From a virus, in the IMG/VR virus record IMGVR_UViG_3300045988_053149, positions 1 through 35,877 of that record: a stretch of DNA of 35,877 nt. The stretch is one strand, 5' to 3'. The notes under the pieces are model-generated. The model made no database searches, was not told the DNA's origin, and saw nothing but the letters and a program-made list of their open reading frames with translations. Both the position numbers and the translations under genes were made by a program. Of this stretch, positions 1 to 35,877 are shown in pieces. Position 1 is the stretch's first letter, and every line of letters begins with the position of its first letter.

Positions 1-55
1 CCGAGTTTGCCGTCATGTCAACGACATACGAATCGGCAATGAGGTAGTTCTTGGA
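1..55. repeat. 55-bp terminal direct repeat, identical to 35823-35877 (circular-assembly overlap)
   Basis: Direct comparison of the two window ends. The repeat lies inside an ORF that stays in frame across the junction. Confidence 0.95.
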
Positions 56-8603: not shown

Positions 8604-9023
8604 TCACCCCTTCGGCAGGTACTTGTCCTGCACCTTTTTCATAGCCGATTCAATCTCGCTGCTCACGAAGCTGCGGCGCATGAACGGGTGCTTCGGATAC
8701 GGCGAGTTGCTGCGCCCGTACTCGAAAAGGTTGCAGACCAAGGGCGCGGGCGTTTCCGTCCCGTCCTCGTTTTTGAAGTACCCGTAGAAAGCGACCTTGG
8801 TGGCAACGCCGTCATCGGACGGCGTTTTGTACGAGCGCGTCAGCTTCAGGCACTTCATGATGCCCGATTTTCGGAAACTTGCGGGGACGTTGGCCTTGAC
8901 GTTCGCCAATACCTTTTTAGCCCCCTCGCGCGTCATCTCCTTCAGCATCGTGTCCGTGTTCTTGTCAAGATACTCGAACTGCTCCATAAGCTCGGTCGGA
9001 AGTTGCTCATCGAATGATGCCAT
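8604..9023 (-). CDS. HK97 gp10-family head-tail joining protein (139 aa)
   Basis: The ATG at 9023 overlaps the upstream TGA (TGATG), with GAGGAGGTGA 5 nt upstream. MASFDEQLPTELMEQFEYLDKNTDTMLKEMTREGAKKVLANVKANVP resembles gp10-type proteins. Confidence 0.6.
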   Translation of the reverse strand: MASFDEQLPTELMEQFEYLDKNTDTMLKEMTREGAKKVLANVKANVPASFRKSGIMKCLKLTRSYKTPSDDGVATKVAFYGYFKNEDGTETPAPLVCNLFEYGRSNSPYPKHPFMRRSFVSSEIESAMKKVQDKYLPKG

Positions 9024-9688
9024 CAGTGCGTCACCTCCTCTATGTATTTGAAATGATACCACTTGCTATGCTTGCGTTCACCTCTAGCAACCGCAGAGAC
9101 GTTGCCTTGCGACAACCCAAGCGCTTTTGCTGCTTCTGTTGCGCTTACGAAAGTTTCACCAGTCTCGACGCACAGCACATGTTTGCAAAGCTTGCCGCGC
9201 TTATGCGCTTCGCTCATTTTGCGCCTTGTTTCTTCTGACACGGTTTTGCCGTACATCGGGTTTTTAGCGCCTTTATGCAATTCGCTCAGCTTGCGCTTTG
9301 TTTCTGCCGTGTGGTGCTTGCCAAGCCAAGGCGCTACATCTTTGCGCCGACCTTTTAGCGACTTTCTTATTTTGCGCTTAGTCTCTTCTGACATTTTGCC
9401 TGACGAATTTCCGCCATGCTCGACGTTGTAACCATGGGCTTTTTCGTCGCTGTGGTATTGCGCTATAAGCTCCATTTCCTTACGTTCAGCTTCCTCTTTA
9501 CTCAAGCCGACGAAGAGTATTTCATGCTTGAAGTTGTCCCAACCATACTTGCGGATAGCATTCATAAAGTATGGCTGGCGCTTGTACCCATAGCCGTTGT
9601 TCCAGCGTCTCTCAGGCTCCATAGACGTTATGCCTATGTAGACTTTGCCATTTGGCGCGGTGTGTCTGTATACGGTGTATCTCTGCAT
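9023..9688 (-). CDS. Free-standing GIY-YIG homing endonuclease with NUMOD3-type repeats and a C-terminal HTH (221 aa)
   Basis: YTVYRHTAPNGKVYIGIT...RRWNNGYGY...KYGWDNFKHEIL...YNVEHGGN, repeated (S/T)EETKRKI(R/S)..LKG motifs, and a C-terminal VETGETFVSATEAAKALGLSQGNVSAVARG. GC is visibly lower than in the flanking genes. Confidence 0.85.
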   Translation of the reverse strand: MQRYTVYRHTAPNGKVYIGITSMEPERRWNNGYGYKRQPYFMNAIRKYGWDNFKHEILFVGLSKEEAERKEMELIAQYHSDEKAHGYNVEHGGNSSGKMSEETKRKIRKSLKGRRKDVAPWLGKHHTAETKRKLSELHKGAKNPMYGKTVSEETRRKMSEAHKRGKLCKHVLCVETGETFVSATEAAKALGLSQGNVSAVARGERKHSKWYHFKYIEEVTH

Positions 9689-11701: not shown

Positions 11702-12337
11702 CTAGTCCTCCTTCATCTCGGCAATCATTGCCTTGAATTTGCTGTAGTCAATTTCCTGCTTGGTTTCACGTGAAACATCGTCGTCCTTGTCCTCTCGCGT
11801 TTCACGTGAAACGTCGTGTTCGTCATCGTCGGCGTCAAACACGTCGGAGACGAAAATCCTATTCTCGGAATCCTCGCTCCTAGCCATGATGAGCGTGCCG
11901 TCGTAGGCTGGAACCTTGGAACGGTCGAGGATGGAAACCTCTTCGAGGTCGAGGTCGTTGACCTCGCGCGTTAGCACCCCGTTCTCGACACCGTTCTTGA
12001 CGTCGCGGTCGTAGAAGCCGAACGACCAGCCCACCAGGTCGCCGCGCTTCGCCATCTCCATGACCTCCTTGTCGGAAATGGCGCACTTGGCGCGAAGCCC
12101 GATGTTGTCCTCGGTGAGTTCGAGGTTGCCCTTCTTGGTGCTGCCAAGGTCTCGCTGCCAGTCGTGGTTGAGCAGGACGTGAACATCGTCGTTGCGCTTC
12201 AGGGCACGCGCGAACGCGCCCTTCTTGATTCGCTCGATAAACTTGCCCATGCGCGAAAGCAGCGGTTTGCTGTTCCGCTCCACGGCGTTCACGTAGCCTT
12301 CGATTTCGACCGCATCCTCGCGAATGTTAATCTGCAT
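11702..12337 (-). CDS. Prohead maturation protease, HK97 family (about 211 aa)
   Basis: Contains the VLLNHDWQRDLGSTKKGNLELTEDNIGL motif. The ATG at 12337 follows AAGGGGGTGA. The acidic C-terminal tail carries a 12-aa duplication. Confidence 0.85.
   Translation of the reverse strand: MQINIREDAVEIEGYVNAVERNSKPLLSRMGKFIERIKKGAFARALKRNDDVHVLLNHDWQRDLGSTKKGNLELTEDNIGLRAKCAISDKEVMEMAKRGDLVGWSFGFYDRDVKNGVENGVLTREVNDLDLEEVSILDRSKVPAYDGTLIMARSEDSENRIFVSDVFDADDDEHDVSRETREDKDDDVSRETKQEIDYSKFKAMIAEMKED
11763..11776. other. parS-like palindrome GTTTCACGTGAAAC (site A; 16-mer GGTTTCACGTGAAACA)
   Basis: Perfect 14-bp palindrome identical to the chromosomal parS core consensus. It is in frame as V-S-R-E-T in the protease tail. 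Confidence 0.8.
11799..11812. other. parS-like palindrome GTTTCACGTGAAAC (site B; 16-mer CGTTTCACGTGAAACG)
   Basis: Perfect 14-bp palindrome 36 bp from site A, in frame as V-S-R-E-T. Confidence 0.8.
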
Positions 12338-13553
12338 TTGCATCACCCCCTTGCGCATGAAGTGCGCCGTCAGAATCCGAAATGCCCTTGGTCGAGTCCG
12401 TGTTGGGTGTGTAGACCTCGCCAGTAGACGTATCGAACAGAACGGAGCCAAGTCCAAGGTCGATGATGTCCAACCCCTGCACCTCGTTCATGTTCTCGTT
12501 TCGGCGCATCTCGTTAATCGTCATTATGCCACATTCTTTTGCAAGCTGGTACGTCTCGTATCGCTCCTTCAGACTGGCCTTGATGATTTCGCGGCTGTCG
12601 AAAGCGAAGAAGTAATTGCGCTTCTCCTTTTCCAGCAGCAGGTCGCGGTTAAGCGCCGTCTCGAACGCCCGCACAATCGGGTAGATTGCGAACTTGTACG
12701 TCTCCTCGAAGTTCTCCTTGATGTGGAAGATGCCGTTAATCTCGTCCGCCATCGTCCGCTTGTTCTCGTTGAGCTGCATCTCGGTTGAAGTGCTCGACGC
12801 TTCTTGGAACTCAAGGCCGTTGTTGAGCACCACGACGTTTTCCTCAGAGTTGCCGTAAAGGTTCGCCCATCCGCTCTTGAGCGCGTCGATTTCGTCCTGC
12901 CCGAGCTTTCGTTCCGCCTTCAGGAACCCGCGCTTGTTGCCGCCCGCCTTCACAAGCCCAAGCTGATACATGAGCGTCTGATATGCGGTTTCGAGAGCCT
13001 TCGCGACCTCGACGGTAAGCCCAACGCCAGACGCGCCGTCCTTCGTGTTGCGCAGAATCTTGATGAACTCGAACGGCTTGTAAATGCCGTCCCCGACGAT
13101 GATGTCATAGTCCTTGTAAATCGGGTCGCTGTTGATGTTGATGCTCACCGCGTCGCATTTGACATAGTAAAGCCCCGTCACGTCGTTTCGGCTGCGCTCA
13201 ATGTAGCAGTACCCGCCCTTGCCCATGAGATAGTCCTCGACCATCGCCTTCTTGAGCTGGAAGCCGTCCAACGTGTCTCCCGTGTCTACGTTGAGCATCT
13301 TCGTGCGCGGGTCGCCCTCAACTTCCTCGACAACGCCCTTCTTGGTGCGGTAAAGGCGCACGGGCATGCACGCGACCGCGCTCGTGATGAAGTCAACCGC
13401 ACCGGATACGGCTGGAAGCATCATGGCCTTGTCGCGGTCGATTGGCTCGTTTGCAAGCAGCGCCCTGAGCAGCACGTCGTTTACCGTGCCGTCATCGCCG
13501 ATGATGTTCTCGGCGGAACGCTTTCGCTCGAGCATGTTTTTAATCCATCCCAT
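12327..13553 (-). CDS. Portal protein, HK97 family (408 aa)
   Basis: Size, position between TerL and the protease, and overall HK97-type portal pattern. Confidence 0.85.
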   Translation of the reverse strand: MGWIKNMLERKRSAENIIGDDGTVNDVLLRALLANEPIDRDKAMMLPAVSGAVDFITSAVACMPVRLYRTKKGVVEEVEGDPRTKMLNVDTGDTLDGFQLKKAMVEDYLMGKGGYCYIERSRNDVTGLYYVKCDAVSININSDPIYKDYDIIVGDGIYKPFEFIKILRNTKDGASGVGLTVEVAKALETAYQTLMYQLGLVKAGGNKRGFLKAERKLGQDEIDALKSGWANLYGNSEENVVVLNNGLEFQEASSTSTEMQLNENKRTMADEINGIFHIKENFEETYKFAIYPIVRAFETALNRDLLLEKEKRNYFFAFDSREIIKASLKERYETYQLAKECGIMTINEMRRNENMNEVQGLDIIDLGLGSVLFDTSTGEVYTPNTDSTKGISDSDGALHAQGGDANAD

Positions 13554-13566
13554 CGAATCACCCCTC

Positions 13567-15258
13567 CTAGATAACCTGAATCGTGAAGTCGGGCATTTGC
13601 CCGAAAACCACGTCCTGCTGCAACAAGTATACGGCGTTGATGAGCGAGACGACCATATCGACCTTTCCCTTGCTCTTCTTCTTGTGGACGTACATGTTGC
13701 GGTTGGTGTCGTAGCTGCAACGCGCGTTCTGGAAGTTGATTTCCAGCAGCTTGTTGTCGGTGTACTCGAACTCGCCGCACAGAATCTTTTCTTTCAGCAG
13801 CTTGATCGGCGGATGGAGCACGCTCGAATGCTGCCTGATTTCGACGGTGTTGTACCCTGCGCCTTCCAACTTCTGCGCAGTGCTGAGCGCGTTCCAGCGG
13901 TCGTAGCCGATTGCCTGAACCTGCACGCCGTACTTGTCCTCGATGCCGAGAATGAAGTCCTCGACCACCTTGTAATCGATAACCCTGTCACCGCACGCGA
14001 TGCACTTTCCGGCACGGATGAACTCGTTGTAGTCGATTTTCTCGTAGGCGTTCTTCTCGGTGATTCGGCCTTCAGGAACGAATGCGAACACGTCCGCGAG
14101 GATGTTGCCGTCATCGTCTGCCGCCACCATAGCGACTGAGGTGTTGTCGTTCGTCTCAGACAAGTCCAATCCGAGATACACCACGCGCCCGCGCCAGTCG
14201 ATGTTCGCCACCTTGCAAGACTGCACGTCCGCGACGTCGATGAACGTCTCGGTGCCCTGACCCTGATAGATGATGTTGCAGTGCTTGGTCAGGAAGTTCT
14301 CGCGTGCCGATTCCACCGCGATTGCGTAGGCTCGTTTCTTCTTCAGGTCTTCCCAGATTTCGGGAATCTCCAAACTCACGGGGTTGGCGTGGCGCATGAC
14401 CAAATCGTCGGTCATCCAGTCCTTCGTATCGTCAGGCTCGTAGAGCAGCGCGAACAGCGTATCGTCCTCTGCGATGCCATCGAGAACCTTCTTGGCGTAT
14501 GCGACCTCGTCCTCGAAAGGATTGTCTATCGTCGGGTACTTGGTGCTGATGATGAAGCCGAGCTTGTTCAAGATGTTCAACTGGCCAGACTTCATCGCTT
14601 CCACCGCGTAGCTCGTCGGCAGCGCCCCTACCTCGTCGGCGCAGAAGGCGCTCGGAAGCCGGCCATCCATTCGAGACGTTGAATAGCTCAAGGGAACGTA
14701 CGTCGAGCTTTTCGGTATGAACGTGATGGACGGATTGATAATCTTGAATCGCTTGTTGCCCTTGTACTCGTAGACCAGTGGGGACGAGCGCAGCGTCTGC
14801 GATATTGCTTCGCGAATCTGCTTTGACAACGCCCCGTCTGGCGCGACTGAGAAGAACTCCGCGAATCGCGGCTCGGTAAGCATGAGGATGATGAAGATGG
14901 TCGCTACCGTGTACGTCTTGAAGTTCTTACGCGCGATTTCAAGCAGCCCGATTTCGTAACGTCGCTTCTCGGGATTGTCTCGGTAGACGGTGCAGAGCAC
15001 GGCGATGTAGAGCAGCCATTGGTAACCCGTCGTGCACTCATAGAGCGTCTGTCCAGCCTTCAGGCCCTTCGGCATGACGAGCAGCTTCAGGATTGATTCG
15101 ACCTGTTGAATCTTGGCTTCGCTGACGAAATACTTCTCGCTCTTGCCCTCGCAGACGTCCATCCATAGGCGCATCTGTTTTTTAACGTACTTGGGGCAAG
15201 CTTGTTTTTCGTAGCTTTCCTGACAGAATTTATAAGCTTTGTTATCTTTTATATTCAA
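13567..15258 (-). CDS. terL: Terminase large subunit (Terminase_1 / HK97 gp2-like, 563 aa)
   Basis: LLEIARKNFKTYT aligns with the HK97 TerL Walker A region SIARKNGKT. C-terminal nuclease-type motifs are present (VYLGLDLSETNDNTSVAMV). The position is upstream of the portal. Confidence 0.9.
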   Translation of the reverse strand: MNIKDNKAYKFCQESYEKQACPKYVKKQMRLWMDVCEGKSEKYFVSEAKIQQVESILKLLVMPKGLKAGQTLYECTTGYQWLLYIAVLCTVYRDNPEKRRYEIGLLEIARKNFKTYTVATIFIILMLTEPRFAEFFSVAPDGALSKQIREAISQTLRSSPLVYEYKGNKRFKIINPSITFIPKSSTYVPLSYSTSRMDGRLPSAFCADEVGALPTSYAVEAMKSGQLNILNKLGFIISTKYPTIDNPFEDEVAYAKKVLDGIAEDDTLFALLYEPDDTKDWMTDDLVMRHANPVSLEIPEIWEDLKKKRAYAIAVESARENFLTKHCNIIYQGQGTETFIDVADVQSCKVANIDWRGRVVYLGLDLSETNDNTSVAMVAADDDGNILADVFAFVPEGRITEKNAYEKIDYNEFIRAGKCIACGDRVIDYKVVEDFILGIEDKYGVQVQAIGYDRWNALSTAQKLEGAGYNTVEIRQHSSVLHPPIKLLKEKILCGEFEYTDNKLLEINFQNARCSYDTNRNMYVHKKKSKGKVDMVVSLINAVYLLQQDVVFGQMPDFTIQVI

Positions 15259-15853
15259 ACTTCATCCCCCTTGTCTGCGAATATTCCCCCTTGAGAACCC
15301 TTGATATACCAGCCCTGTCGCACCCAGTGACGCGCGACGCTTCTCTTATGCTGTAAAACTCTTCGCCTGTGTTTACGCATACGATGGAGGTTCCCACTGC
15401 GGCACGTTGCTCGACGCTCCAATGCCTGCCCTTCATCGGCGATTTGCGACCCTTTAGCTTTTCACTTATCGCCCGCTTTTCCTCTTCTGTGTGTTTTCTT
15501 CTGTTCGGGCATTTGCGTCCCTTTAGAGCCTTACTGATTTTTGCGCGCGTCTCTTCTGACATCTTCGGAGTATTGCCGCCGCGCTCGATGTTGTACCCTT
15601 TCTCAGGGTTGGTGCTGTCGTACTTTTTTATAAGCTCTATTTCCTTGTTCTCTGCGTCCTCGCGGGAAAGGCCATCGCATAGAACCTCATGCTTTATGTT
15701 GTCCCACCCGTATTTGGCTATTGCGCTGTTGAAATGCGTGCTGTTCTTATAGTTCCTGCCACCTTGCCACCGTCTTTCAACGCCAAGCTTCGTAATGCCT
15801 ATATACACTTTGCCTGATGGCGATGTGTGCTTATACACGGTATAGGATTCCAT
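15242..15853 (-). CDS. Free-standing GIY-YIG homing endonuclease, paralog of 9023..9688 (203 aa)
   Basis: The ATG at 15853 follows GAAAGGAG. YTVYKHTSPSGKVYIGIT...RRWQGGRNY...KYGWDNIKHEVL...YNIERGGN, plus NUMOD3-like repeats and a C-terminal VNTGEEFYSIREASRVTGCDRAGISRVLKG. Its 3' end overlaps the terL start. Confidence 0.85.
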   Translation of the reverse strand: MESYTVYKHTSPSGKVYIGITKLGVERRWQGGRNYKNSTHFNSAIAKYGWDNIKHEVLCDGLSREDAENKEIELIKKYDSTNPEKGYNIERGGNTPKMSEETRAKISKALKGRKCPNRRKHTEEEKRAISEKLKGRKSPMKGRHWSVEQRAAVGTSIVCVNTGEEFYSIREASRVTGCDRAGISRVLKGEYSQTRGMKFEYKR

Positions 15854-15946
15854 GATTTGCTCCTTTCTACCGTGCATTATACACCACCTTTCACATACTT
15901 CGGTGTGGTTTCCGCGTCGATTGCAGCCTTGCAGTATTCGTAACCC

Positions 15947-16324: not shown

Positions 16325-17173
16325 CTACCTCCGTTTTCTGTATCTATCGCTGATAATCTTCGGCGTGCACGCGTTCCAGTTTACACGATGGTGCATTCGC
16401 CTGTGGTGCGCCCCCATCTCGGCCACCTTCACGGCCTGCGGCGAGAATATGACGCTATAGAACGACTTGACGTATGTGCCGCTATCGAGGTACATCTCGG
16501 ACATTCCACCAGCCTGCGATTGTGTTCCTTGCTGACAAATCTGCGTGTTGGTAATCGTGAGGAACAGCCCGCCCTTGTTCCCAAGGCTCGTGTACGTGTT
16601 GACGTCCTCGTTGACCCTACCGACGAACCAGAACCGCCTTGAGGTCTTGCAGAAAAAGGTGTTCATTGCCTTGCGAGAAAGACCCTTATGGAAGAAATTG
16701 TTCGCACCACCGATGAGGTCACCGCCCTGCGCAAGCGCGATGGAAAGCGCACCGCTCGAATCAAGGAACTCGATACAATCCTCGAACAGCCTATCGAGGT
16801 CTTTGCAATCGGTGTGCTTGAGCTGTGCACCAGAAATGTACCTGAACATGAACGCGGTGTAGTCATCGTCGAGTTCGAGGAAGTATTCTAAACCCAACTT
16901 CTCGGCGAGTTCGAAACAGACGTTGCGAGCGTAGACGATTGCTCGCCTGTCCTCCGATAGGTCTGCTGTGTCGAACTTCTTGGACTCTGCAAGTTTGTCG
17001 AACTGAATCACCTTGTCGCCGTACAGCTCTCGATACCTGTCTGCCGTGTCATCCTCGTTGTCAATGACGATATAGAGCTTGCCAGTGTAGTTCCCCATAT
17101 TCAGAGCACGGAGCGTCTTGATGTTGTCAGGCCTGCCGTGCGTGAGGATGAATACTTCAAAATCACTTCGCAT
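16325..17173 (-). CDS. Putative GT-A-fold nucleotide-sugar transferase, paralog 2 (282 aa)
   Basis: MRSDFEVFILTHGRPDN...KLYIVIDNEDD...YARNVCFELAEKLGLEYFLELDDDY shows alternating beta/alpha segments ending in a DxD-type DDD near residue 100. It is clearly paralogous to 17163..18005. Confidence 0.45.
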   Translation of the reverse strand: MRSDFEVFILTHGRPDNIKTLRALNMGNYTGKLYIVIDNEDDTADRYRELYGDKVIQFDKLAESKKFDTADLSEDRRAIVYARNVCFELAEKLGLEYFLELDDDYTAFMFRYISGAQLKHTDCKDLDRLFEDCIEFLDSSGALSIALAQGGDLIGGANNFFHKGLSRKAMNTFFCKTSRRFWFVGRVNEDVNTYTSLGNKGGLFLTITNTQICQQGTQSQAGGMSEMYLDSGTYVKSFYSVIFSPQAVKVAEMGAHHRRMHHRVNWNACTPKIISDRYRKRR

Positions 17174-18005
17174 TCTTGCGCCACCTCCCGCTGAGAATCT
17201 TCGGATACATGAGGGCCTTGCTCTTCCTCAGACTTGTGCCGTCCTTGCTGACGATGATTCTCAGGCTGCTCGGGTCGATTATCACGGAATAGAAGTCGCA
17301 CACGTACTGCTTGTTGTCATCGTACAAGCCGTGCAGTCCTCCTTCGTTCGTTCCGCGCTGCGGAGTGCTCTTCGTTATCGCGTAAGCTTCGAGCATGACC
17401 TGCCCAGCGTCCTTGCCCAGCAGAAGCGCGTTCATGTCCTCGTTGAGGATACCGACGAACTTGAGCCTGTCATCCGCGCGAACGACGAACGCCTGATTGA
17501 TGTTCCAGCACATGCCATTCCCATACACGCCTTGCAACCCGCCTATGAGCGCACCACTCGAAGCGATGTTGAGCGACGTGACTCCCGTAGTATCAAGGAA
17601 CCCCACCATTGACTCGAACAGCGCGTCGAAGTCGGTCACTGGTGCCGACATGAGCCTGCCGTCCCTGACGTACCTGAACGTGAACGAGCTGAGGTCATCG
17701 TCGAACATGGCGAAGTAGCTCAGGCCCAAATCGTCCGCGATGTCGTACGCGGCGTTCCTTGCGAACACGACGGAGCGAAGCTCGTCCTCGGTGGTCATGG
17801 TATCGACGCGCTTGGCGTACTCGCGTTTGTCGAACACGATTACGCTGTCGCCGTAAAGCCGTTCGTACTCATCCCTCTGCTCGTCGAGGTCATCTATTAC
17901 AAGGTAGACGTTGCCAGTGTATCCATGCTTCTCCAACTCGTGGAACGTCACTTGGTCGTGCGCCCTCCCGTGCGTGAGAATCAGCACGGCGAAGTCGCTA
18001 CGCAT
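17163..18005 (-). CDS. Putative GT-A-fold nucleotide-sugar transferase, paralog 1 (about 280 aa)
   Basis: MRSDFAVLILTHGRAHD...NVYLVIDDLDE...FARNAAYDIADDLGLSYFAMFDDDL has the same architecture as paralog 2. The ATG at 18005 overlaps the ParB-domain gene end. Confidence 0.45.
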   Translation of the reverse strand: MRSDFAVLILTHGRAHDQVTFHELEKHGYTGNVYLVIDDLDEQRDEYERLYGDSVIVFDKREYAKRVDTMTTEDELRSVVFARNAAYDIADDLGLSYFAMFDDDLSSFTFRYVRDGRLMSAPVTDFDALFESMVGFLDTTGVTSLNIASSGALIGGLQGVYGNGMCWNINQAFVVRADDRLKFVGILNEDMNALLLGKDAGQVMLEAYAITKSTPQRGTNEGGLHGLYDDNKQYVCDFYSVIIDPSSLRIIVSKDGTSLRKSKALMYPKILSGRWRKNAK

Positions 18006-18744
18006 CGTCTTCACCGCTCATGAAGTCGATGTCCTCGGTAAGCTTCGCGTATCCCTTGGCGATTGCATCATCAACGTCGATTATCACGAGCGCGGAGTCC
18101 TCCATAAGCTCCTGCATCTCGGGCGTCGCGTTAGCGTAGTATTCCGCGACCTTCTTGTAGTTGAATGCATAGTGTCTGGTTGCTGCCTTGATTAGAAACT
18201 CGCGCTCCTCGGGCGTGACGTTCGAATCCTGAATCCTCATGACAAGCTCGTTGGCCTTCGAATCGTCAACGAGTTCGTCAATGGAAGGGCACTCGCCGGT
18301 CGGCTCGTACTGCGGTATGTTCACCTTCTTGGTGTAGGTATCGTCCGCCTGCGGCTCGTCCTCTTCCAGCTCTTCGAAGTCGAAGCCGAAGTCGGTCATG
18401 TCGATATCGTCTATGCCCTCAAGCTCGATGCCAAGCTTCGCCATGTCCCACTGGGCAAGCTCGCCGGTCTTGTTGTCCGCGAGGCGGAACGCCTTCACCT
18501 GCTCGGGCGTCAAATCGTCCGCCACGATGACTGGCACCTGCTTGAGTCCGAGCTTGTGAGCGGCCTTGAGCCGAGTATGCCCGTTGATAATGACGTTCTC
18601 GCCGTCTACGACGATTGGAACCTTGAAACCGAACTCCTTGATGCTCGCCGCGACCGCATCCACCGCATTGTCGTTCAATCGCGGGTTGTTCGCGTACGGA
18701 ATGAGCGAATCAACGTCCATGTAGGTGACTTTTGTCTTGTCCAT
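17998..18744 (-). CDS. ParB/Srx N-terminal-domain protein (ParB-like nuclease domain, 248 aa) without a methyltransferase or canonical ParB HTH
   Basis: VDSLIPYANNPRLNDNAVDAVAASIKEFGFKVPIVVDGENVIINGHTRLKAAHKLGL contains the GxxRxxA box. It is followed by LTPEQVKAFRLADNK, as in phage ParB-methylase fusions. RBS is GAAAGGAG. Confidence 0.75.
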   Translation of the reverse strand: MDKTKVTYMDVDSLIPYANNPRLNDNAVDAVAASIKEFGFKVPIVVDGENVIINGHTRLKAAHKLGLKQVPVIVADDLTPEQVKAFRLADNKTGELAQWDMAKLGIELEGIDDIDMTDFGFDFEELEEDEPQADDTYTKKVNIPQYEPTGECPSIDELVDDSKANELVMRIQDSNVTPEEREFLIKAATRHYAFNYKKVAEYYANATPEMQELMEDSALVIIDVDDAIAKGYAKLTEDIDFMSGEDDA

Positions 18745-18973: not shown

Positions 18974-19366
18974 TTACCCTTCCGCATCTCGGCACGCAGC
19001 TCGCCTCTTCGCAGCCAGCCCACGTAGGTATGCTTTGCCAAGCTCGCCATCATCCGCCATCCTGTGGTGCATCCTACATAGGCACACGAGGTTATCGTCC
19101 TCTATCAACCCGTCCGGGTCTTCCCTCAGCTTCTCGATATGGTGAACCTCCAACCCATCGGTCGTTGCCTTCCCTTGGTCTCGGCATACCTCGCACATCC
19201 AGTGCGCATCGTCTCGCACCTGTAGGCTCTTCCTCTTCCACCTTGAGGTGAAGCGCAGCCTGTCCGCTCCCGTCCTCTCGTACCTGTATGTCGGCCTCTT
19301 CCTCGGGCACGGCTGGTCGTATGGGTGCATCTTCCCGCAGCGCGGGCACGCCCTGTATGCTCCCAT
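18974..19366 (-). CDS. HNH endonuclease (terminase-associated, about 130 aa)
   Basis: CEVCRDQG...LEVHHIEKLREDPDGLIEDDNLVCLCRMHH. The ATG at 19366 follows GGGAGGA. HNH with P27 TerS and HK97-type head genes is the usual cos-packaging set. Confidence 0.85.
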   Translation of the reverse strand: MGAYRACPRCGKMHPYDQPCPRKRPTYRYERTGADRLRFTSRWKRKSLQVRDDAHWMCEVCRDQGKATTDGLEVHHIEKLREDPDGLIEDDNLVCLCRMHHRMADDGELGKAYLRGLAAKRRAACRDAEG

Positions 19367-19447
19367 GTGCGTCCTCCCTTCAACCGGCAACGGGCCTCGC
19401 CGACTAGACGAGACCCGCTTCGTGGTCTTGCTCAGTTGTCTTGCTGC

Positions 19448-20413
19448 CTACACCTTCAGTGCGCCGCTTGCATCAGAACCCACGCCATACTGCATCTCGC
19501 CGTCCGCGCCGAAGGCATACCACTTTCCGCCGATGCTCTCGACATCAGCCGCGTGCATCGCTCCCGTTTCCGGGTCCATGTAGTACCACTTGCCTCCATC
19601 TTGCACCCAGCCGGTGGCCATCGCGCCGGAATCGGTGAGGTAGTACCACTTGCCGCCGACCTGCTGCCATCCGGTCAGCATCCAGCCGTCAGCATCGAAG
19701 AGGTACCATTTGCCATCAATATGCTCCCATCCGCTCTTGGTATACGAGCCGTCTGCATGCCTGTACCACCAGCGGCCATCCTGCTTAATCCAGCCGGTCT
19801 GCTTGGCGCTGGCCGTTCCGACGTACCTCGCCCATCCATCGGCGTCCATGTAAGCCTTGTCTAGGTCTAGGTTGCCATTGTATCCCGCAAGCCTTCCGGT
19901 TGAACTGTACTGCCTGATAGCACAGTTATACGCGCCCTCGTTCCAAGGGCTGTCTTGGTATCCGGTGGGCTTTTTGTTCGCATACTGTGCGACCCATGCG
20001 CCGCAATTGAGAGCCTGCGCGACGTCCCACGGGAATGAGCCTGCGGGCGCGTAGATGAGCGGATTGACTCCCGTGCGGTCGATGACTCGCTGGACAAGCT
20101 GCTTGAGGTAGCCGGTGTTGCCCCACGCGGCGTTCTCCGCGCTCTCCCAGTCGATGCACGGGATGCCCTTGCCGAAGTATCCTGCGCAATGGTCGATGAA
20201 GAAGTCGGCTTCTGCCTGTGCTCCGCTGCCGTCCACGTAATGGTAGAAGCCGAACGGCTTGCCGAGGGCAATGGCCTGCTGAACCTGCGCGTCGCAGGCG
20301 TCAGAGACGAAATTCACGCCCTGCGTCGCCTTTACGATTACGAAATCACATGGAACCTTCGAGAGGTCGATTCCCGCCTGCCATCCGCTGATGTCGATTC
20401 CCTGCATTGCCAT
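19448..20413 (-). CDS. Endolysin: GH25 muramidase + C-terminal choline-binding-type (CW_binding_1) repeats (321 aa)
   Basis: GIDISGWQAGIDLSKVPCDFVIVKATQGVNFVSD...FGFYHY is a GH25 signature. The C-terminus has about 5-6 repeats of the GW..DGGKWYY...G.M.TGW type. Confidence 0.9.
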   Translation of the reverse strand: MAMQGIDISGWQAGIDLSKVPCDFVIVKATQGVNFVSDACDAQVQQAIALGKPFGFYHYVDGSGAQAEADFFIDHCAGYFGKGIPCIDWESAENAAWGNTGYLKQLVQRVIDRTGVNPLIYAPAGSFPWDVAQALNCGAWVAQYANKKPTGYQDSPWNEGAYNCAIRQYSSTGRLAGYNGNLDLDKAYMDADGWARYVGTASAKQTGWIKQDGRWWYRHADGSYTKSGWEHIDGKWYLFDADGWMLTGWQQVGGKWYYLTDSGAMATGWVQDGGKWYYMDPETGAMHAADVESIGGKWYAFGADGEMQYGVGSDASGALKV

Positions 20414-24669: not shown

Positions 24670-24989
24670 CACTTGGATGGCGGTTGCATTGTACCACGAA
24701 GGAACCTCCTGAGTCGCTTCGCGGGTGAAGTCCTGTCATAGTGCATGCGCCTCGCTATCGTCTCCCAGCTCTTCCCCTCAAGGAACCGCATGACGGCTAT
24801 CGCCCTGATTCCGGGGTCAGGTATCGTCGCTATGAACGCCATCGCCTCAAGCCTCGCGGACTCCACCGCCCTAGCCTGCCCCTCTATGGCGTCCAGCACC
24901 TCCAGGCTAGGCTCAAGGGCCGCAACCCTGCGGAGCGCGTCCAACTCCGCCTGTAGGCTGCGGGCCTGCGAAAGCTCGCGCTCGGTCAC
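24669..24989 (-). CDS. Sigma-70 region-4-like / phage transcriptional regulator (106 aa)
   Basis: The GTG at 24989 overlaps the DnaC-like stop (GTGA). IPDPGIRAIAVMRFLEGKSWETIARRMHYDRTSPAKRL resembles sigma region 4 / DUF1492-type HTH. Confidence 0.45.
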   Translation of the reverse strand: MTERELSQARSLQAELDALRRVAALEPSLEVLDAIEGQARAVESARLEAMAFIATIPDPGIRAIAVMRFLEGKSWETIARRMHYDRTSPAKRLRRFLRGTMQPPSK

Positions 24990-25825
24990 AGCCCCAGCAG
25001 CTCCTTGGCTGCTGCCGTCCTTGCGGCATACTCGGAGCGCCTGCGGTCGCAGCCGTTGAACGCCACCGGAACGCACATGTCCATGATTCGGCTGTACACA
25101 CGCTGCTCGCCTATCCCGTCTGCCGCCATGAGGTCACGCGGGTTGATGTTGGTCGTGACTATAAGGGGAAGCTTCGAGCGGTAGCGGGCGTCAATCACGG
25201 CGGTGACCTGCTCGGTCATGTACTCTGTCTTACGCTCGGTGGCGAAGTCATCGATAATCAGCAGGTCGAACTTCTGGAGGCCGTCGATGTACTCCTGCCT
25301 ACCCGAGAAGCCGTTCGAGAGCTTGTTCACGATGCGCTGGAAGTTGGTCATGAGGCACGGCGTGCCGTTCTCAATCAGCGCGTTCGCTATACATGCGGCC
25401 GCAAAGCTCTTCCCGCTGCCCACGTTGCCGTATAGCATCAGCCCCGTACCGCTCTCCAGCATCTGCGGGAACTTCTCGACGTAGCGCTTCATTGCGGCCA
25501 TCGTCCTCGCGTCCTTGCCGTCATCGTTGGCGAACGTCCACTCCCGCATCTCGGAGTCTGGGAAGCCGGTGCGGCGCATCCTGTCCACGCGCTGCATCCT
25601 CTCGCGTGCCCTGTCCTCTTCCTTGAGCCTTTCCTCCGTCTCTACCTCACACTTGCACATGCAGTATGGCTTGATGACCCTGCCGCCGCACTCTATCTCG
25701 CACTGCTTGGGCGTGTGGCACTTGCCGCAGTACAGCAGGCCGTCCTTGATGTAGTCGCCCTTGTGCCCTTTCGCGTTCCTCGCTGCTGCCTTTGCCAATC
25801 CCTCGATTATCCCGTTCATTTCCAT
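24986..25825 (-). CDS. DnaC/IstB-like AAA+ helicase loader (279 aa)
   Basis: Walker A LMLYGNVGSGKSF, Walker B LLIIDDFATE, an N-terminal Cys-rich zinc module, and position after the DnaD-like gene. Confidence 0.8.
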   Translation of the reverse strand: MEMNGIIEGLAKAAARNAKGHKGDYIKDGLLYCGKCHTPKQCEIECGGRVIKPYCMCKCEVETEERLKEEDRARERMQRVDRMRRTGFPDSEMREWTFANDDGKDARTMAAMKRYVEKFPQMLESGTGLMLYGNVGSGKSFAAACIANALIENGTPCLMTNFQRIVNKLSNGFSGRQEYIDGLQKFDLLIIDDFATERKTEYMTEQVTAVIDARYRSKLPLIVTTNINPRDLMAADGIGEQRVYSRIMDMCVPVAFNGCDRRRSEYAARTAAAKELLGL

Positions 25826-25840
25826 GATTTTCCTTCCTCT

Positions 25841-26572
25841 CTATCGCTTATTCGGCGCGTACTTGCCGAGGCCGAGAACCTTGTCGACCTCTTCGTCGCC
25901 GGTGCTCTGGTAGTAGTAGTCGGCGTCTACCTTCTTGTTGAAGCCGCTTGATGTTTCACGTGAAACGCCGACTTTATTTCCGCTCCTATCACGACGCGCC
26001 CAATTCCGAATCGTGGCTAGGTGGTTCTTGTAGCTCTTGCCAGTTGATGCCATGTAGGCGCTGAGCCTTTCGACTCTCTCTTCCCAGTCCGTGGGGAACT
26101 CGGCTTTGAGCTTCGCCAAATCTGTATCGCTGAGAAGGACGTTTGAGTATTCGCCGTACTTGTGGCGCGTCTCCTTCTTAGTAATTGATTCTTTAGTATT
26201 TGGTTTATTAGTACTTTGTTGTTTAGTACTTAATTGGGGTTCATTTCCCAAGTTGGAATTTACCAAGTTTGGGTTTTCAAAGCGTGGATAATCGCTCACA
26301 ATCCATACGCACCGCCCCATTCTCCCGTTTTCGTCGCGCTCCCTCGTGCGCGATAGGAACCCGTCGGATTCGAGTTCCTTAATTGCTGACCTTACCGAAG
26401 TCTGGCCGTCTTCCAGTATCGCCTGCAACCCGTTCTCGCTGAACTCCCAATCATCGGGAAGTGAAAGCATCGTGCATAACATCCCGCGAGCCTTGAGTGA
26501 TAAATCGCTCTTGAAAACGTCGTTGCTGATGCACGTGTAGTTTTCCTTGTGCTCCTTGCGTAAAAATGCCAT
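25841..26572 (-). CDS. Replication organizer: N-terminal winged-helix + C-terminal DnaD/DnaB_2-like domain (243 aa)
   Basis: The ATG at 26572 follows AGGTGGTG. MAFLRKEHKENYTCISNDVFKSDLSLKARGMLCTMLSLPDDWEF... and C-terminal SAYMASTGKSYKNHLATIRNWARRD. Confidence 0.7.
   Translation of the reverse strand: MAFLRKEHKENYTCISNDVFKSDLSLKARGMLCTMLSLPDDWEFSENGLQAILEDGQTSVRSAIKELESDGFLSRTRERDENGRMGRCVWIVSDYPRFENPNLVNSNLGNEPQLSTKQQSTNKPNTKESITKKETRHKYGEYSNVLLSDTDLAKLKAEFPTDWEERVERLSAYMASTGKSYKNHLATIRNWARRDRSGNKVGVSRETSSGFNKKVDADYYYQSTGDEEVDKVLGLGKYAPNKR
25953..25966. other. parS-like palindrome GTTTCACGTGAAAC (site C; 16-mer TGTTTCACGTGAAACG)
   Basis: Third perfect copy, in frame as V-S-R-E-T in the C-terminal linker of the replication organizer. 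Confidence 0.8.
26178..26273. repeat. AT-rich patch with six 15-bp-phased short repeats (candidate origin iterons)
   Basis: TTAGTA starts at 26178, 26193, 26208 and 26223. CCAAGTT starts at 26248 and 26263. The local GC drop is obvious by eye. Confidence 0.6.
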
Positions 26573-26588
26573 TTTGCACCACCTAAGC

Positions 26589-26627
26589 GAAAGCCCCATC
26601 ACAGGTAACGGCTGTGATGGGGCTTTC
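26589..26627. promoter_or_regulatory. Perfect 16-bp-stem hairpin in the leader of the replication organizer gene
   Basis: GAAAGCCCCATCACAG-gtaacgg-CTGTGATGGGGCTTTC. On the plus strand it is followed by TATTTTT. The loop region GGTAACGGC (26604-26612) is complementary to GCCGTTACC (26670-26678). Confidence 0.7.
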
Positions 26628-30758: not shown

Positions 30759-30814
30759 TATCTCAGCAAACGTGGTAACACCAACGTTTAGCGGGGAAAG
30801 GAGTCGAATTTTGG

Positions 30815-31123
30815 ATGGCGTTTACTGACAATTTGCAGTCTCTTATGAGCGCAAAAGGGATATCCCGTCGAAAATTGGCGAAAGAGTGCGGGATAAGCCC
30901 CAGCGCGGTGAACTCATGGTTCAACCGCAGCGCCGAGAACATCAGCTTGCAGACGTTGAAGAAGCTGTCGGACTACTTCGGTATAAGCATCGAGGAGCTT
31001 GTCCACGGCAGCAAGCAAACGCGCGAGATAACATTTTCGAGCAGCGCGTACACTGACGAAGAATTGAAACAGATAAAACAGTTCGCACACTTTTTGATAA
31101 GGCAACGAGAAAGGAATGAATGA
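30815..31123 (+). CDS. cI-like XRE-family repressor (102 aa)
   Basis: The HTH is ISRRKLAKECGISPSAVNSWFN. RBS is GGAAAGGAG. It is divergent from the Cro-like gene and 3 nt upstream of the integrase. Confidence 0.8.
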   Translation: MAFTDNLQSLMSAKGISRRKLAKECGISPSAVNSWFNRSAENISLQTLKKLSDYFGISIEELVHGSKQTREITFSSSAYTDEELKQIKQFAHFLIRQRERNE

Positions 31124-31126
31124 TGG

Positions 31127-32629
31127 ATGGCATACGCAATGTACCTGCGCAAGTCACGCGCAGACGAGGAACTAGGATACGAGAACACGCTTGAACGACA
31201 CGAGGAAATGTTGCGCAACCTAGCGGCGCAGACTGGAATCCACGTAGACGAATCGCACATCTACAGGGAAATTGTCTCGGGTGAGAGCATCGAAGCCCGC
31301 CCGCAGATGCAGAAGCTGCTGAAGGCGGTCGAGATGGGACTTTACACTGGCGTGCTCTGCATAGAGCTTGAACGCCTCAGCCGTGGGGACGGAGCCGACC
31401 AACAAAGGATACTGAAGGCGTTCCAGTTCTCCGATACGAAGATAATCACGCTAACAAAGACCTACGACCTAGCGGGAGACGATTCATTCGACGAGGAATT
31501 CTTCGAGTTCGGGCTTTTCATGAGCCGCCGCGAGTACAAGATGATTAAAAAGCGCCTGTATCGCGGAAGGATACAGGCGCAGAAGGAAGGATATTTTATC
31601 GGGTCGCGCCCGCCTTACGGGTACGACAAGAAGCGAATCGGCAAGGGCTATGTTCTGGTACCAAACGAGAACGCGGAAGTTGTGCGATACATCTTCAGAA
31701 GGTACGCGCAACGCGAGACGGCGGCGAACATCCTGCACGACCTGAACAACATGGCTATCCCGACAGTGACCGGCACGAAGTGGACGGCCTACGCGATTCG
31801 CGAGGTCATCAAGAACCAGACGTACATCGGGAAGATAAACACCAAGACGGTTCGCTGTGAGAAGTCAATCAAGGACGGGAAGGTCGTTCAAAGGTGGCTG
31901 AACAACTACGAACCCGTTGTGGTGGAAGGAAAGCACGAGCCGATAGTCGATGAAGAGCTGTTCTGGAAGTGTCAGGAAGTCCGCGACAGCAAGAAGACGA
32001 GAATGAGGTCAGACCTGACATTGAAGAACCCGCTGGCATCGATAATGTTCTGCAGCGTGTGCGGCAAGACGATTCGCCGCACACATTACGACTATAAGGG
32101 CGAAAGGACTTTCTACTATGGTTGCGTCACGTCACGCTGCGAGACGAAGAACACTTTCACCCATGTTGTCTACGATATGGTAATTGACGAACTCAAGAAG
32201 GAATTGGAACGCCAGCAGGTCGTGCTCGCAAGCTACGACACATCGCCAGAGCATGACGCGAGAAGGGACGAACTCGAAATGCTCAGGGCGGAACTTGGCA
32301 AGAAGTCGATGATGCTGGAAAGGGCCTGCGAGGCATATGAGACTGGAATCTACGACCGACAGACGTATCTTGAGCGTGTGCAGAAGGTCAACGCCGCGAG
32401 GGCGGAGCTTCAGGCGAGGGTCGAGGAACTTGAAGCGAGCATCGAGGAAAGCGAGGAAAGGCACGAGAAGGCCGTGCCGATTCTCACAAGGGTTGTCGAG
32501 GAAATGCACACCTTGGAGCCGAAGGAGCAGAACGACCTGCTCAAGATGATTATCGATAGAATCGAATATGAAAAGACTGAGTCGGGCGCGGCGATAGAAC
32601 CCACGCTTCGAATCAGTCTCAAAATATAA
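31127..32629 (+). CDS. int: Large serine recombinase (integrase, 500 aa)
   Basis: The N-terminal resolvase domain has YLRKSRAD (catalytic Ser). It is followed by a recombinase domain, a Cys-rich zinc beta-ribbon (CSVCGK...YYGC) and a C-terminal coiled coil. Confidence 0.9.
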   Translation: MAYAMYLRKSRADEELGYENTLERHEEMLRNLAAQTGIHVDESHIYREIVSGESIEARPQMQKLLKAVEMGLYTGVLCIELERLSRGDGADQQRILKAFQFSDTKIITLTKTYDLAGDDSFDEEFFEFGLFMSRREYKMIKKRLYRGRIQAQKEGYFIGSRPPYGYDKKRIGKGYVLVPNENAEVVRYIFRRYAQRETAANILHDLNNMAIPTVTGTKWTAYAIREVIKNQTYIGKINTKTVRCEKSIKDGKVVQRWLNNYEPVVVEGKHEPIVDEELFWKCQEVRDSKKTRMRSDLTLKNPLASIMFCSVCGKTIRRTHYDYKGERTFYYGCVTSRCETKNTFTHVVYDMVIDELKKELERQQVVLASYDTSPEHDARRDELEMLRAELGKKSMMLERACEAYETGIYDRQTYLERVQKVNAARAELQARVEELEASIEESEERHEKAVPILTRVVEEMHTLEPKEQNDLLKMIIDRIEYEKTESGAAIEPTLRISLKI

Positions 32630-34494: not shown

Positions 34495-35877
34495 CTATGC
34501 CAGCGCGACGAACGCGATGCCAGTGCTTGCGTTCGTCTGAATCGGTACCATCTTCATCAGACCGCCGATAGCGAGCGAGCTGTTGATGTACCCGTTCGCC
34601 ATGTAGAACACACCGTCGGTAACGCCGTAGGTCGCGTTTCCCTGCGCGTCGTAGCCCACAAGGCCCTGCGAAGCGTTGATTTCGATGCGCGAGCCGTCGT
34701 TGGCCCACATGCGAAGCCCATCCTTGTCGAGCTGTCCCAGCAGCGAGCCGCCCGCCGAGCGAACCTCCATCACGCCGTTGCCGTTTTCGGTACCTCCCAG
34801 CTTCAGCGTGCCGCCCTTGATTAAATCGGCCACGAAATTGATGACGTTGATATTCTGCATGTTCATCGTGCCGTCGATGCCCCACGCGCTCTCGAAAGTC
34901 CCGGCGATGCCGTTGCGCGAGAAGGCGATGCCGTTGTCGTTAATCATGATGACGTTGTGCGCGTCCTCCTTCGGCAGCGAGTCCAGCACCATGATTTTCG
35001 ATCCGTCGTAGATGACGTACGAAGCGCCCATCGACTGCGTGATGGCCTGCGTGACCGTATCCGTAACGCCCTGAATAGCGCTGTTGACCGTGCTCTGTGC
35101 CGCGCTTTGCGCAGACGATTGCAGCGTTCCAGCAAGGCCGCTGAGCGTCTTGGTGAAGTTTCCGAACTCGATTTCTGTGTACTTGCCGAGGATGCAGTCA
35201 TACGTGAACCCGATAACGCTTGTCAGGATATGCACGCCAAGGCGCTCGTCGATGACTTCCACCGTGTCTCCGATGTCGGTCACGCGTTCGAGGTTGGCCT
35301 TCAACGTGTAGTTGACCTTCGGCACGCAGTTTGCGTTGACGTAGTCCTGTGCCTGCCTTCTCAGGTCATCGACAAGGGCTTTACGGTATGCCGTCTCGTC
35401 GTTGCCGTAATCGTCTTTCTCGATTGAGGATTGCGAGAACGAGACGGTCTTGGTGAACGGTATGTCCCATTTCTGCTCGCTCTCGACGTAGATTGACGCG
35501 CTCGGGTCTTGGTCGTTTAGAAGGATGCCGTCCGTGCCCACAGGCAGCAGCTTCGTTACGACGCTGCTCCAATCGTACTTGCACATGAGTTCCTTCAGGT
35601 TCTTGCGGTACCTGACGGTCACGCCGTTGTCTGCCCCGATTGACTGGCGAAGCTCGATGCGGAAATTGTCGCGCACCAGATGCCCGCCCCAGCGCTCGAT
35701 AACCGTTTGAATCGCTTCGTAAAGCGACTTTCTGACGCAGCGGAACGAGTCAATCGTCTGCACGTCCGAGATGGTTACGAACTCGCTCTTCGGCTCCGTG
35801 GCTTCGTTCAGGTGGTCGAGCGCCGAGTTTGCCGTCATGTCAACGACATACGAATCGGCAATGAGGTAGTTCTTGGA
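34495..35877 (-). CDS. Tal-like tail-tip protein, C-terminal 461 codons of the gene that starts at 319 (wraps the circular junction)
   Basis: The frame stays open from the track ATG (35838) to the window end and continues at 56..319 through the 55-bp overlap. Confidence 0.75.
   Translation of the reverse strand, partial: SKNYLIADSYVVDMTANSALDHLNEATEPKSEFVTISDVQTIDSFRCVRKSLYEAIQTVIERWGGHLVRDNFRIELRQSIGADNGVTVRYRKNLKELMCKYDWSSVVTKLLPVGTDGILLNDQDPSASIYVESEQKWDIPFTKTVSFSQSSIEKDDYGNDETAYRKALVDDLRRQAQDYVNANCVPKVNYTLKANLERVTDIGDTVEVIDERLGVHILTSVIGFTYDCILGKYTEIEFGNFTKTLSGLAGTLQSSAQSAAQSTVNSAIQGVTDTVTQAITQSMGASYVIYDGSKIMVLDSLPKEDAHNVIMINDNGIAFSRNGIAGTFESAWGIDGTMNMQNINVINFVADLIKGGTLKLGGTENGNGVMEVRSAGGSLLGQLDKDGLRMWANDGSRIEINASQGLVGYDAQGNATYGVTDGVFYMANGYINSSLAIGGLMKMVPIQTNASTGIAFVALA
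35823..35877. repeat. 55-bp terminal direct repeat, identical to 1-55
   Basis: Direct comparison of the window ends. Confidence 0.95.

Follow-up and report, generated by a model that had tools for sequence, protein, structure and literature searches.

We investigated a 35,877-nt stretch of viral DNA (IMG/VR record IMGVR_UViG_3300045988_053149, positions 1 to 35,877; hereafter the window, meaning the whole stretch), in which the 14-bp palindrome GTTTCACGTGAAAC occurs in three exact copies. This palindrome is the core of parS, the chromosomal site bound by the partition protein ParB (Spo0J). Our preferred interpretation, which we hold with moderate confidence on the basis of sequence comparisons, is that the palindromes are genuine chromosomal-type parS sites and that host ParB would, through them, couple the non-integrated phage genome to the segregation machinery of the cell. 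Because the genome carries three copies of the site and no partition genes, the ParB is most likely borrowed from the host. Host-type parS within phage genes lacking ParAB is not new in kind, as phage phi29 has already been described; what is new is the lineage, a siphophage resembling Lactobacillus delbrueckii phage c5 that encodes an integrase and was never found integrated.

Results and Discussion

The palindromes are located at 11763-11776 (copy A), 11799-11812 (copy B), and 25953-25966 (copy C), and no fourth copy was present in the 35,877-nt window, even with up to two mismatches allowed. Relative to the 16-mer parS consensus TGTTTCACGTGAAACA, copies A, B, and C have 1, 2, and 1 mismatches, each at the outermost positions, and their identities are therefore 15/16, 14/16, and 15/16, respectively (the 16-mer of copy A spans 11762-11777). 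These positions and matches had been given in an earlier account of the window made from its letters alone (hereafter the sequence-only reading), and our recount confirmed them. The bases that separate parS from the site of Noc are G at position 2 and A at position 7. All three copies are of the tGTTTCACGTGAAACa type and none is of the tATTTCCCGGGAAATa type; that is, they have parS-type bases at the distinguishing positions. The claim that three copies are more than chance also held: the expected count was 0.08, three or more copies occurred in 0 of 100 dinucleotide-preserving shuffles of the window, and 300 synonymous-codon shuffles of its genes gave zero copies. The 14-bp core is identical to that of the chromosomal parS sites served by ParB (Spo0J), ParA (Soj), and SMC in Firmicutes and Actinobacteria, and 14 to 15 of the 16 consensus positions are shared. 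Unlike those sites, the copies in the window reside on a phage, are not beside oriC, and have no linked parAB operon. Location inside coding sequence is itself normal for chromosomal parS.

Copies A and B, 36 bp apart from centre to centre, are in the gene of a prohead serine protease (Peptidase_S78; 11702-12343, minus strand, start codon inferred at 12343 or 12337; Pfam E = 7.5e-33; PHROG head maturation protease), with copy A close to the 3' end of the gene. On the minus strand, copy A is read as D-V-S-R-E-T-K and copy B as D-V-S-R-E-T-R within ...DDEHDVSRETREDKDDDVSRETKQE..., and the acidic C-terminal tail that carries both is ...DDEHDVSRETREDKDDDVSRETKQEIDYSKFKAMIAEMKED*. An alignment of 31 relatives placed the two copies in a variable acidic linker of the protease (11753-11836, minus strand), which is flanked by the S78 domain and then by a conserved C-terminal peptide, IDYSK(F/Y)KAMIAEMKE(D/G). 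The order of portal, protease, and major capsid genes is the same as in phage c5. The sequence-only reading had described the protease tail as containing a 12-residue duplication. The two 36-nt units are indeed 72% identical, but this is barely more than the palindromes themselves, and identity outside the palindrome is only ~55%; a true tandem duplication of 12 codons was rejected on this ground.

Copy C is in the gene of a replication organizer or initiator with an HTH_36 N-terminal part and a DnaD-like C-terminal part (25841-26599, minus strand), followed by a DnaC/IstB-like loader gene (24986-25825). It is read as G-V-S-R-E-T-S in the linker of this protein, within ...GNKVGVSRETSSGF... (longer context, ...RSGNKVGVSRETSSGFNKK...). 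In a relative (L312), a 252-aa gene was called at the organizer position. No iterons were found around copy C, and a role for the site in a replication origin was rejected. At 26589-26627, two perfectly matching 16-nt arms (GAAAGCCCCATCACAG ... CTGTGATGGGGCTTTC) separated by 7 nt form an inverted repeat. The arm with the lower coordinates covers the first 11 nt of the organizer gene (called start, 26599); this repeat could be a terminator or an operator.

The V-S-R-E-T readings in acidic linkers, twice in the protease tail and once in the organizer, had been pointed out before and were reproduced here. The minus strand is the coding strand of almost all genes in the window, including those bearing the sites. 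However, the third frame of the palindrome contains TGA, so genes can read the site only as VSRET or FHVK, and the common frame of the three sites is therefore uninformative.

We then asked what the codons tell. The codons that spell the palindrome are all minority codons in this phage (fractions: GTT, 0.16; TCA, 0.10; CGT, 0.095; GAA, 0.32), and from phage codon usage the probability of the palindrome given VSRET is ~5e-4 per site; nevertheless, all three VSRET use the palindrome. Relatives were gathered via the adjacent capsid protein, a procedure blind to parS. VSRET was present in the protease tail of 19 relatives, the window counted, which yielded 15 distinct protease sequences for the codon test. 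Among these, 77% of the amino-acid-invariant degenerate codons showed synonymous variation (mean minor-codon fraction, 0.19), whereas the codons GTT, TCA, CGT, and GAA of copy A were conserved in 14/15, 15/15, 15/15, and 15/15 sequences, respectively. An alignment of homologs for wobble conservation, which the sequence-only reading had proposed as a check, thus came out in favor of the sites. The spacing between copies A and B varied among relatives (27, 36, or 45 nt).

A search of related phages, which the sequence-only reading had proposed for the 16-mer, found the 14-mer in protease, organizer, and intergenic positions. The exact 14-mer was intergenic in five relatives (L017:7040, L018:7025, L023:6425, L026:7039, and L048:10798), ~4 kb downstream of the capsid start, between the stop codon (...SDEEWF*) of a tail-region gene and the ribosome-binding site (MASFGGAVKLTGES...) of the next gene. 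At this offset, a further relative (L036) has a copy with one mismatch, and the window itself has no parS there. The organizer site was exact in 7 of 24 organizer relatives, some of whose proteins were only 60-63% identical with varying flanking residues, and 2 further relatives of the 24 retained VSRET with one DNA mismatch.

The rare codons, the conserved wobble positions, and the intergenic copies show that the sites are maintained by selection on DNA rather than on the peptide, and the evidence for such selection is unusually clean. The sites could instead have no function at the DNA level, with VSRET selected as a peptide (a protease cleavage or targeting motif) or produced by duplication and chance. 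In its favor, the tail that holds two of the copies is acidic and repetitive, and all three copies share one frame. Yet this account is contradicted by the codon usage and wobble conservation described above, by the intergenic copies in relatives, by FHVK-frame and non-coding copies that occur at other viral loci, by 36-nt units that share little beyond the palindrome, and by shuffles that never gave three copies. We regard it as extremely improbable and rejected it.

We next consider which protein would bind the sites. The window encodes no recognizable partition ATPase or centromere-binding protein, in agreement with the sequence-only reading, which had noted that a ParA gene was missing and that the single ParB-domain protein had no helix-turn-helix (HTH) domain. 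Six-frame translation of the window contained neither the deviant Walker A motif of ParA (KGGxGK[ST]) nor the ParB box II motif (GERRxRA), and Pfam scans of 40 open reading frames (ORFs) of the window detected neither ParA nor a ParB HTH. The only ParB-domain protein (17998-18744) matched ParB_N at residues 8-86 alone, and the solved ParB, Noc, and Spo0J structures that it matched aligned with residues 3-93 only. Its gene is 6-7 kb from the nearest parS copy. Directly downstream are two genes for TET-associated glycosyltransferases (TAGTs; 17163-18014 and 16325-17173, minus strand), and the resulting ParB_N and TAGT cassette (16325-18744, minus strand) adjoins the inferred cos site.

Phage ParBs without a DNA-binding domain activate thymidine dioxygenases (5mYOX) in DNA hypermodification pathways (PMC13229309). 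Similar to the ParBs in that report, the protein in the window has an N-terminal ParB fold, no recognizable DNA-binding domain, and adjoining glycosyltransferases; unlike the 5mYOX clusters (PMC13229309), the window showed no TET/JBP (5mYOX) dioxygenase match in the Pfam scans of the 40 ORFs. No hydroxymethylase was found in the genome either. The cassette suggests DNA hypermodification via an incomplete or unknown pathway.

A phage protein might nonetheless bind the palindromes, either this ParB_N-only protein or another regulator using them as operators. A ParB-fold protein is encoded, and palindromes are typical of operators. However, the cassette with its two TAGTs resembles that of the dioxygenase-activating ParBs, which lack a DNA-binding domain (PMC13229309), and the sites have exactly the sequence of the universal chromosomal consensus. 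Phage c5, whose left end has the same pair of ParB-like and glycosyltransferase genes, encodes a full-length, 54% identical ParB_N ortholog in the corresponding place beside cos but has no parS. Among 80 viral loci with homologs of the ParB_N protein, parS was within 8 kb in 9, all of which matched at 65% identity or more, whereas none of the weaker homologs had parS. The restriction to an N-terminal domain, the occurrence of an ortholog in the parS-free c5, and the low frequency of parS at homolog loci indicate that the ParB_N protein is not the cognate binder. Nothing connects it to the parS sites; it was rejected as a parS binder, and we consider recognition by any phage protein very unlikely.

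The proposed interpretation also depends on the state of the phage genome in the cell. An exact 55-nt direct repeat is present at the two ends of the window (1-55 and 35823-35877). This repeat is an assembly overlap, so that the genome is circular and complete at ~35.8 kb; both ends of the contig are inside the tail-gene region, away from cos. Gene order and sequence link the window to the group of the cos-type L. delbrueckii phage c5 (TerL, 72% protein identity), with synteny extending through cos, the ParB-like gene, glycosyltransferase, TerS, TerL, portal, protease, and capsid, and through holin, lysin, and HNH genes. Two genes of the window are absent from c5: a large serine recombinase (integrase; 31127-32629) and a cI-like repressor (30815-31123). 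The window is scaffold_569 of ENA ERZ28597968, and relatives occur in human-gut metagenome records. Capsid homologs at E of 1e-50 or lower number in the thousands, with the best 120 being 87-100% identical, and the lineage is abundant in the human gut. Protein-cluster names gave only "Siphoviridae sp. ct2773" or "Caudoviricetes sp."

No integrated copy of the lineage was found in any collection searched, covering species genomes, a metagenome scan, and exact-protein look-ups. Among 185,579 species genomes scanned, the only match was a 14.9-kb contig (L048) that carries the capsid gene and was binned in a metagenome-assembled genome (MAG) of an "uncultured Clostridia". The contigs examined with the same or a closely related integrase kept the unintegrated junction between the integrase and a tail gene, and the longest contig in any protein cluster examined was at most 36.4 kb, among hundreds of cluster members. 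In addition, three relatives from gut metagenomes (L332, L343, and L380) have internal deletions that remove part of cI and/or the serine integrase (region 30808-32437; jumps in window coordinates from 30808 to 31788, 30939 to 31852, and 31293 to 32437). The variants L332 and L343 are on 24.3- and 33.6-kb contigs, and L380 is a 4.1-kb fragment only. Integration is evidently dispensable for such variants.

These observations bear on an integrated-prophage role, in which the sites would act on the chromosome as ectopic SMC-loading parS or as ParB-spreading silencers of late genes. The serine integrase and the cI-like repressor speak for such a role, and the sequence-only reading had offered SMC loading and the silencing of late genes in the lysogen. 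We found no support for either: the lineage was never found integrated, and several relatives with deletions in cI and/or the integrase still assemble as 24-34 kb contigs. Moreover, chromosomal ParB spreading is only weakly repressive. We therefore judge a role in an integrated prophage to be decidedly unlikely.

Under our preferred interpretation, borrowing of host ParB by a non-integrated genome, parS would be encoded as (D/G)VSRET in protein linkers of low complexity that tolerate such a signal. Host ParB (Spo0J) would nucleate on the three sites and load CTP-dependent sliding clamps onto the phage DNA, and these clamps would link the circular, non-integrated genome to host ParA (Soj) and/or SMC. 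In a carrier, pseudolysogenic, or plasmid-like state, the phage genome could thereby be placed alongside the nucleoid and passed on with it; if the host forms spores, capture in the forespore could follow, as in phi29. That host ParB binds the sites and that inheritance benefits are both predictions of this model. According to what is reported of work by Lin and Grossman in 1998, a single parS stabilizes an unstable plasmid in B. subtilis, depending on Spo0J and Soj. If the model is correct, a very common lineage of human-gut phages enrols host chromosome segregation while encoding no partition protein. This could account for the persistence of non-integrated phages in dividing gut bacteria, in the carrier or pseudolysogenic states that are much discussed for gut phages but for which mechanisms are lacking.

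The sequence-only reading had regarded host-type parS hidden in coding sequence without ParA as undescribed, which turned out to be incorrect. Phage phi29 is described as having host-type parS and no ParAB, and host Spo0J acts on its sites to trap the phage DNA in spores (Meijer et al. 2005, via PMC2731898). The other half of this strategy consists of Spo0A boxes at early and late promoters, which suppress the lytic cycle. In our literature search, host-type parS on phages was described for the phi29 family only. We verified the sites in the phi29 genome (NC_011048), which contains four exact copies of TGTTTCACGTGGAACA and one degenerate site. Of the exact copies, one is intergenic (17243) and three are inside genes, namely those of connector gp10 (10445, C-terminal tail), gp15 (15903), and gp17 (18760). 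Read on the opposite strand, TGTTTCACGTGGAACA corresponds to the B. subtilis parS TGTTCCACGTGAAACA.

Similar to phi29, the window has several host-type parS, sites inside genes, and no ParA or ParB of its own. In contrast, phi29, a virulent podophage of 19 kb with protein-primed replication, infects a sporulating Bacillus and has sites matching TGTTCCACGTGAAACA and Spo0A boxes at promoters, whereas the window is a 35.8-kb cos-type, c5-related gut siphophage with an integrase and a repressor, in which a tandem pair and one single site all have the symmetric core and no convincing Spo0A-box signal accompanies them. By analogy, the window may be regarded as a further case of phi29-type parS exploitation in a different phage family and ecosystem. 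Of the interpretation in the sequence-only reading, the part concerning host-type parS kept for a DNA-level function, without a phage ParA or centromere-binding ParB, is well supported, but the novelty fails and the prophage roles lack support.

A strict phi29-type strategy, in which host Spo0J pulls a silenced infecting genome into the forespore so that the phage survives in the spore, is possible but unlikely in our judgment. It is the only use of host parS on a phage for which an experimental description is known (PMC2731898). Of 129 paired-site loci in other viral contigs (see below), 51 are phi29-like, and one of the host clues, the MAG bin of L048, points to Clostridia, many of which are spore-forming. 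Spo0A boxes, however, are not evident. The Spo0A-box word TGTCGAA occurs 18 times in the window against 7-9 expected, but it ranks only 42nd of 5009 7-mers, below many TCGA-containing words, and none is in the cI/cro intergenic region. With its count raised yet without specificity among the enriched TCGA words, TGTCGAA gives no convincing sign of Spo0A control of the phi29 kind. In addition, the lysin gene (19448-20413), which encodes GH25 and choline-binding repeats, has its closest match bearing a bacterial organism name in a different, integrated prophage of an Olsenella MAG (L466; GCA_029224545.1, contig JAQXUU010000103.1), with 78% identity, choline-binding repeats included. Coriobacteriia are not known to form spores.

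As a separate observation on word composition, words containing TCGA or ATCG are generally enriched in the window, and TGTCGAA belongs to this group. The 7-mers above the synonymous-shuffle expectation include AATCGTC/GACGATT (25 vs 6.2) and CGAGGAC (31 vs 12.8). Codon-pair bias may be the cause of this enrichment.

Orphan parS sites recur in other viral contigs. We compared 119 sampled IMG/VR loci with the 14-mer and 120 loci with a control palindrome, GTTTCAGCTGAAAC. Two or more copies (2-5) were present at 21 of the 119 loci, compared with 0 of the 120 control loci. The flanks completed the 16-mer (T...A) in 114 of 159 parS sites and in 22 of 120 control sites, and 28% of the parS sites were outside any open frame of 80 codons or more, compared with 1.7% of the control sites. 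Coding copies were again read as [D/N]VSRET within low-complexity segments, for example, in a phi29-type connector (L013; four copies, C-terminal tail), a portal protein (L108; two copies, C-terminal tail), and TerL (L077; one copy, N-terminal linker).

Pairs of sites spaced 4-34 nt apart were found in at least 119 IMG/VR contigs. Of the 129 paired-site loci analyzed with tblastn, 51 (~40%) were phi29-like and 11 belonged to the lineage of the window, whereas 65 matched no query protein of phi29 or the window and two matched only TerL or ParB_N of the window. The ParA motif was present in 0 of the 129 loci and ParB box II in 1. Another example is a separate lineage of ~40-43 kb (L475, L476, L483, L499, and ~15 further IMG/VR contigs, 40-43.4 kb in length), which has two full 16-mer parS sites with their centres 23-25 bp apart; the four loci inspected have ~54% GC, and in three of them all frames across the pair are closed, so that the pair is apparently intergenic.

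Among viral contigs, paired orphan parS seem to be frequent far outside the phi29-like phages. We tentatively suggest, as a possibility that we rate clearly below the interpretation of the window itself, that orphan host-consensus parS, often in tight pairs and often in [D/N]VSRET linkers, represent a widespread and unrecognized phage strategy beyond phi29-like phages, of which the window would be a form in which a plasmid prophage without partition genes is segregated by host ParB, ParA, and SMC. Consensus parS, single or paired, with no parAB nearby may serve as a sequence marker, which already flags at least 119 viral contigs.

Other partition systems of mobile elements differ from this arrangement. 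Phages P1 (parABS) and N15 (sopAB, with dispersed centromeres) and mycobacteriophages (parABS) use centromere-like repeats for the inheritance of an extrachromosomal genome, as proposed here for the sites of the window. Each of them brings its own ParA together with a DNA-binding ParB specific for phage sites, whereas the window has neither gene and its sites are the host consensus. SGI1 is described as hijacking the parABS of IncC plasmids for its own stability (PMC10954446). On that description, SGI1 is similar to the window in being a mobile element that depends, as we propose for the window, on the partition system of another replicon, but it is an integrative mobilizable island rather than a phage and exploits a helper plasmid rather than the host chromosome.

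The distribution of the sites among relatives is uneven. Alleles of the protease tail with and without parS coexist among phages with 85-91% identical capsids, of which ~7 have a VSRET-free tail allele, ...PETRDAEPQQETKQEINYDEYK..., and ~11 of the 24 organizer relatives have a parS-free linker of the SQQPRRAQE type. In phage c5, the cultured outgroup, the homologous protease tail is ...EMETPKEEPKEIDYSK... and parS occurs nowhere in the genome, indicating that the sites are derived within the gut lineage. The natural presence or absence of parS among near-identical phages provides a ready-made experiment on persistence.

This distribution also bears on a role in lytic growth, in which hundreds of phage copies would titrate host ParB or recruit SMC, either disturbing the segregation of the host nucleoid or condensing and resolving replicating phage DNA. 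The sites are of consensus grade, the pair is in the late region and the single site in the replication module, and virulent phi29-like phages also carry such sites. On the other hand, it is not evident what would be gained when the cell lyses within a single cycle, parS is missing from c5, the nearest virulent relative in culture, and a core lytic function fits poorly with the presence/absence polymorphism among close relatives. Overall, we think a lytic role is unlikely.

Several points weigh against the borrowing of host ParB by a non-integrated genome. First, the protease sites are absent in ~1/3, and the organizer site in ~1/2, of equally close relatives, and sites have decayed by one or two bases in L018, L026, L036, and L045; this polymorphism and decay mark the sites as dispensable or only sometimes useful. 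Second, an integrase and a cI-like repressor are present, so that classical integration is possible, and assembly breaks at attachment (att) junctions may hide integrated copies. Third, the host clues conflict, as the lysin points to Coriobacteriia and the MAG bin to Clostridia, and the presence and specificity of a host ParB are assumed from the wide conservation of parS. Finally, hypermodification of the phage DNA by the ParB_N and TAGT cassette, if real, could block ParB binding.

Other features of the genome

Three genes of the mobile-nuclease type are present in the window. A GIY-YIG/NUMOD3 gene (9023-9688) is among the head genes, and a NUMOD3 gene (15242-15877) is between TerS and TerL. 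Upstream of the ParB-like gene, where the right end of the genome is inferred to be, is an HNH gene (18974-19390), an arrangement shared with cos/HNH phages such as c5. The tail region includes a gene for a protein with collagen-like repeats (1627-2634), and the corresponding gene of L312 has a match to Pfam Collagen.

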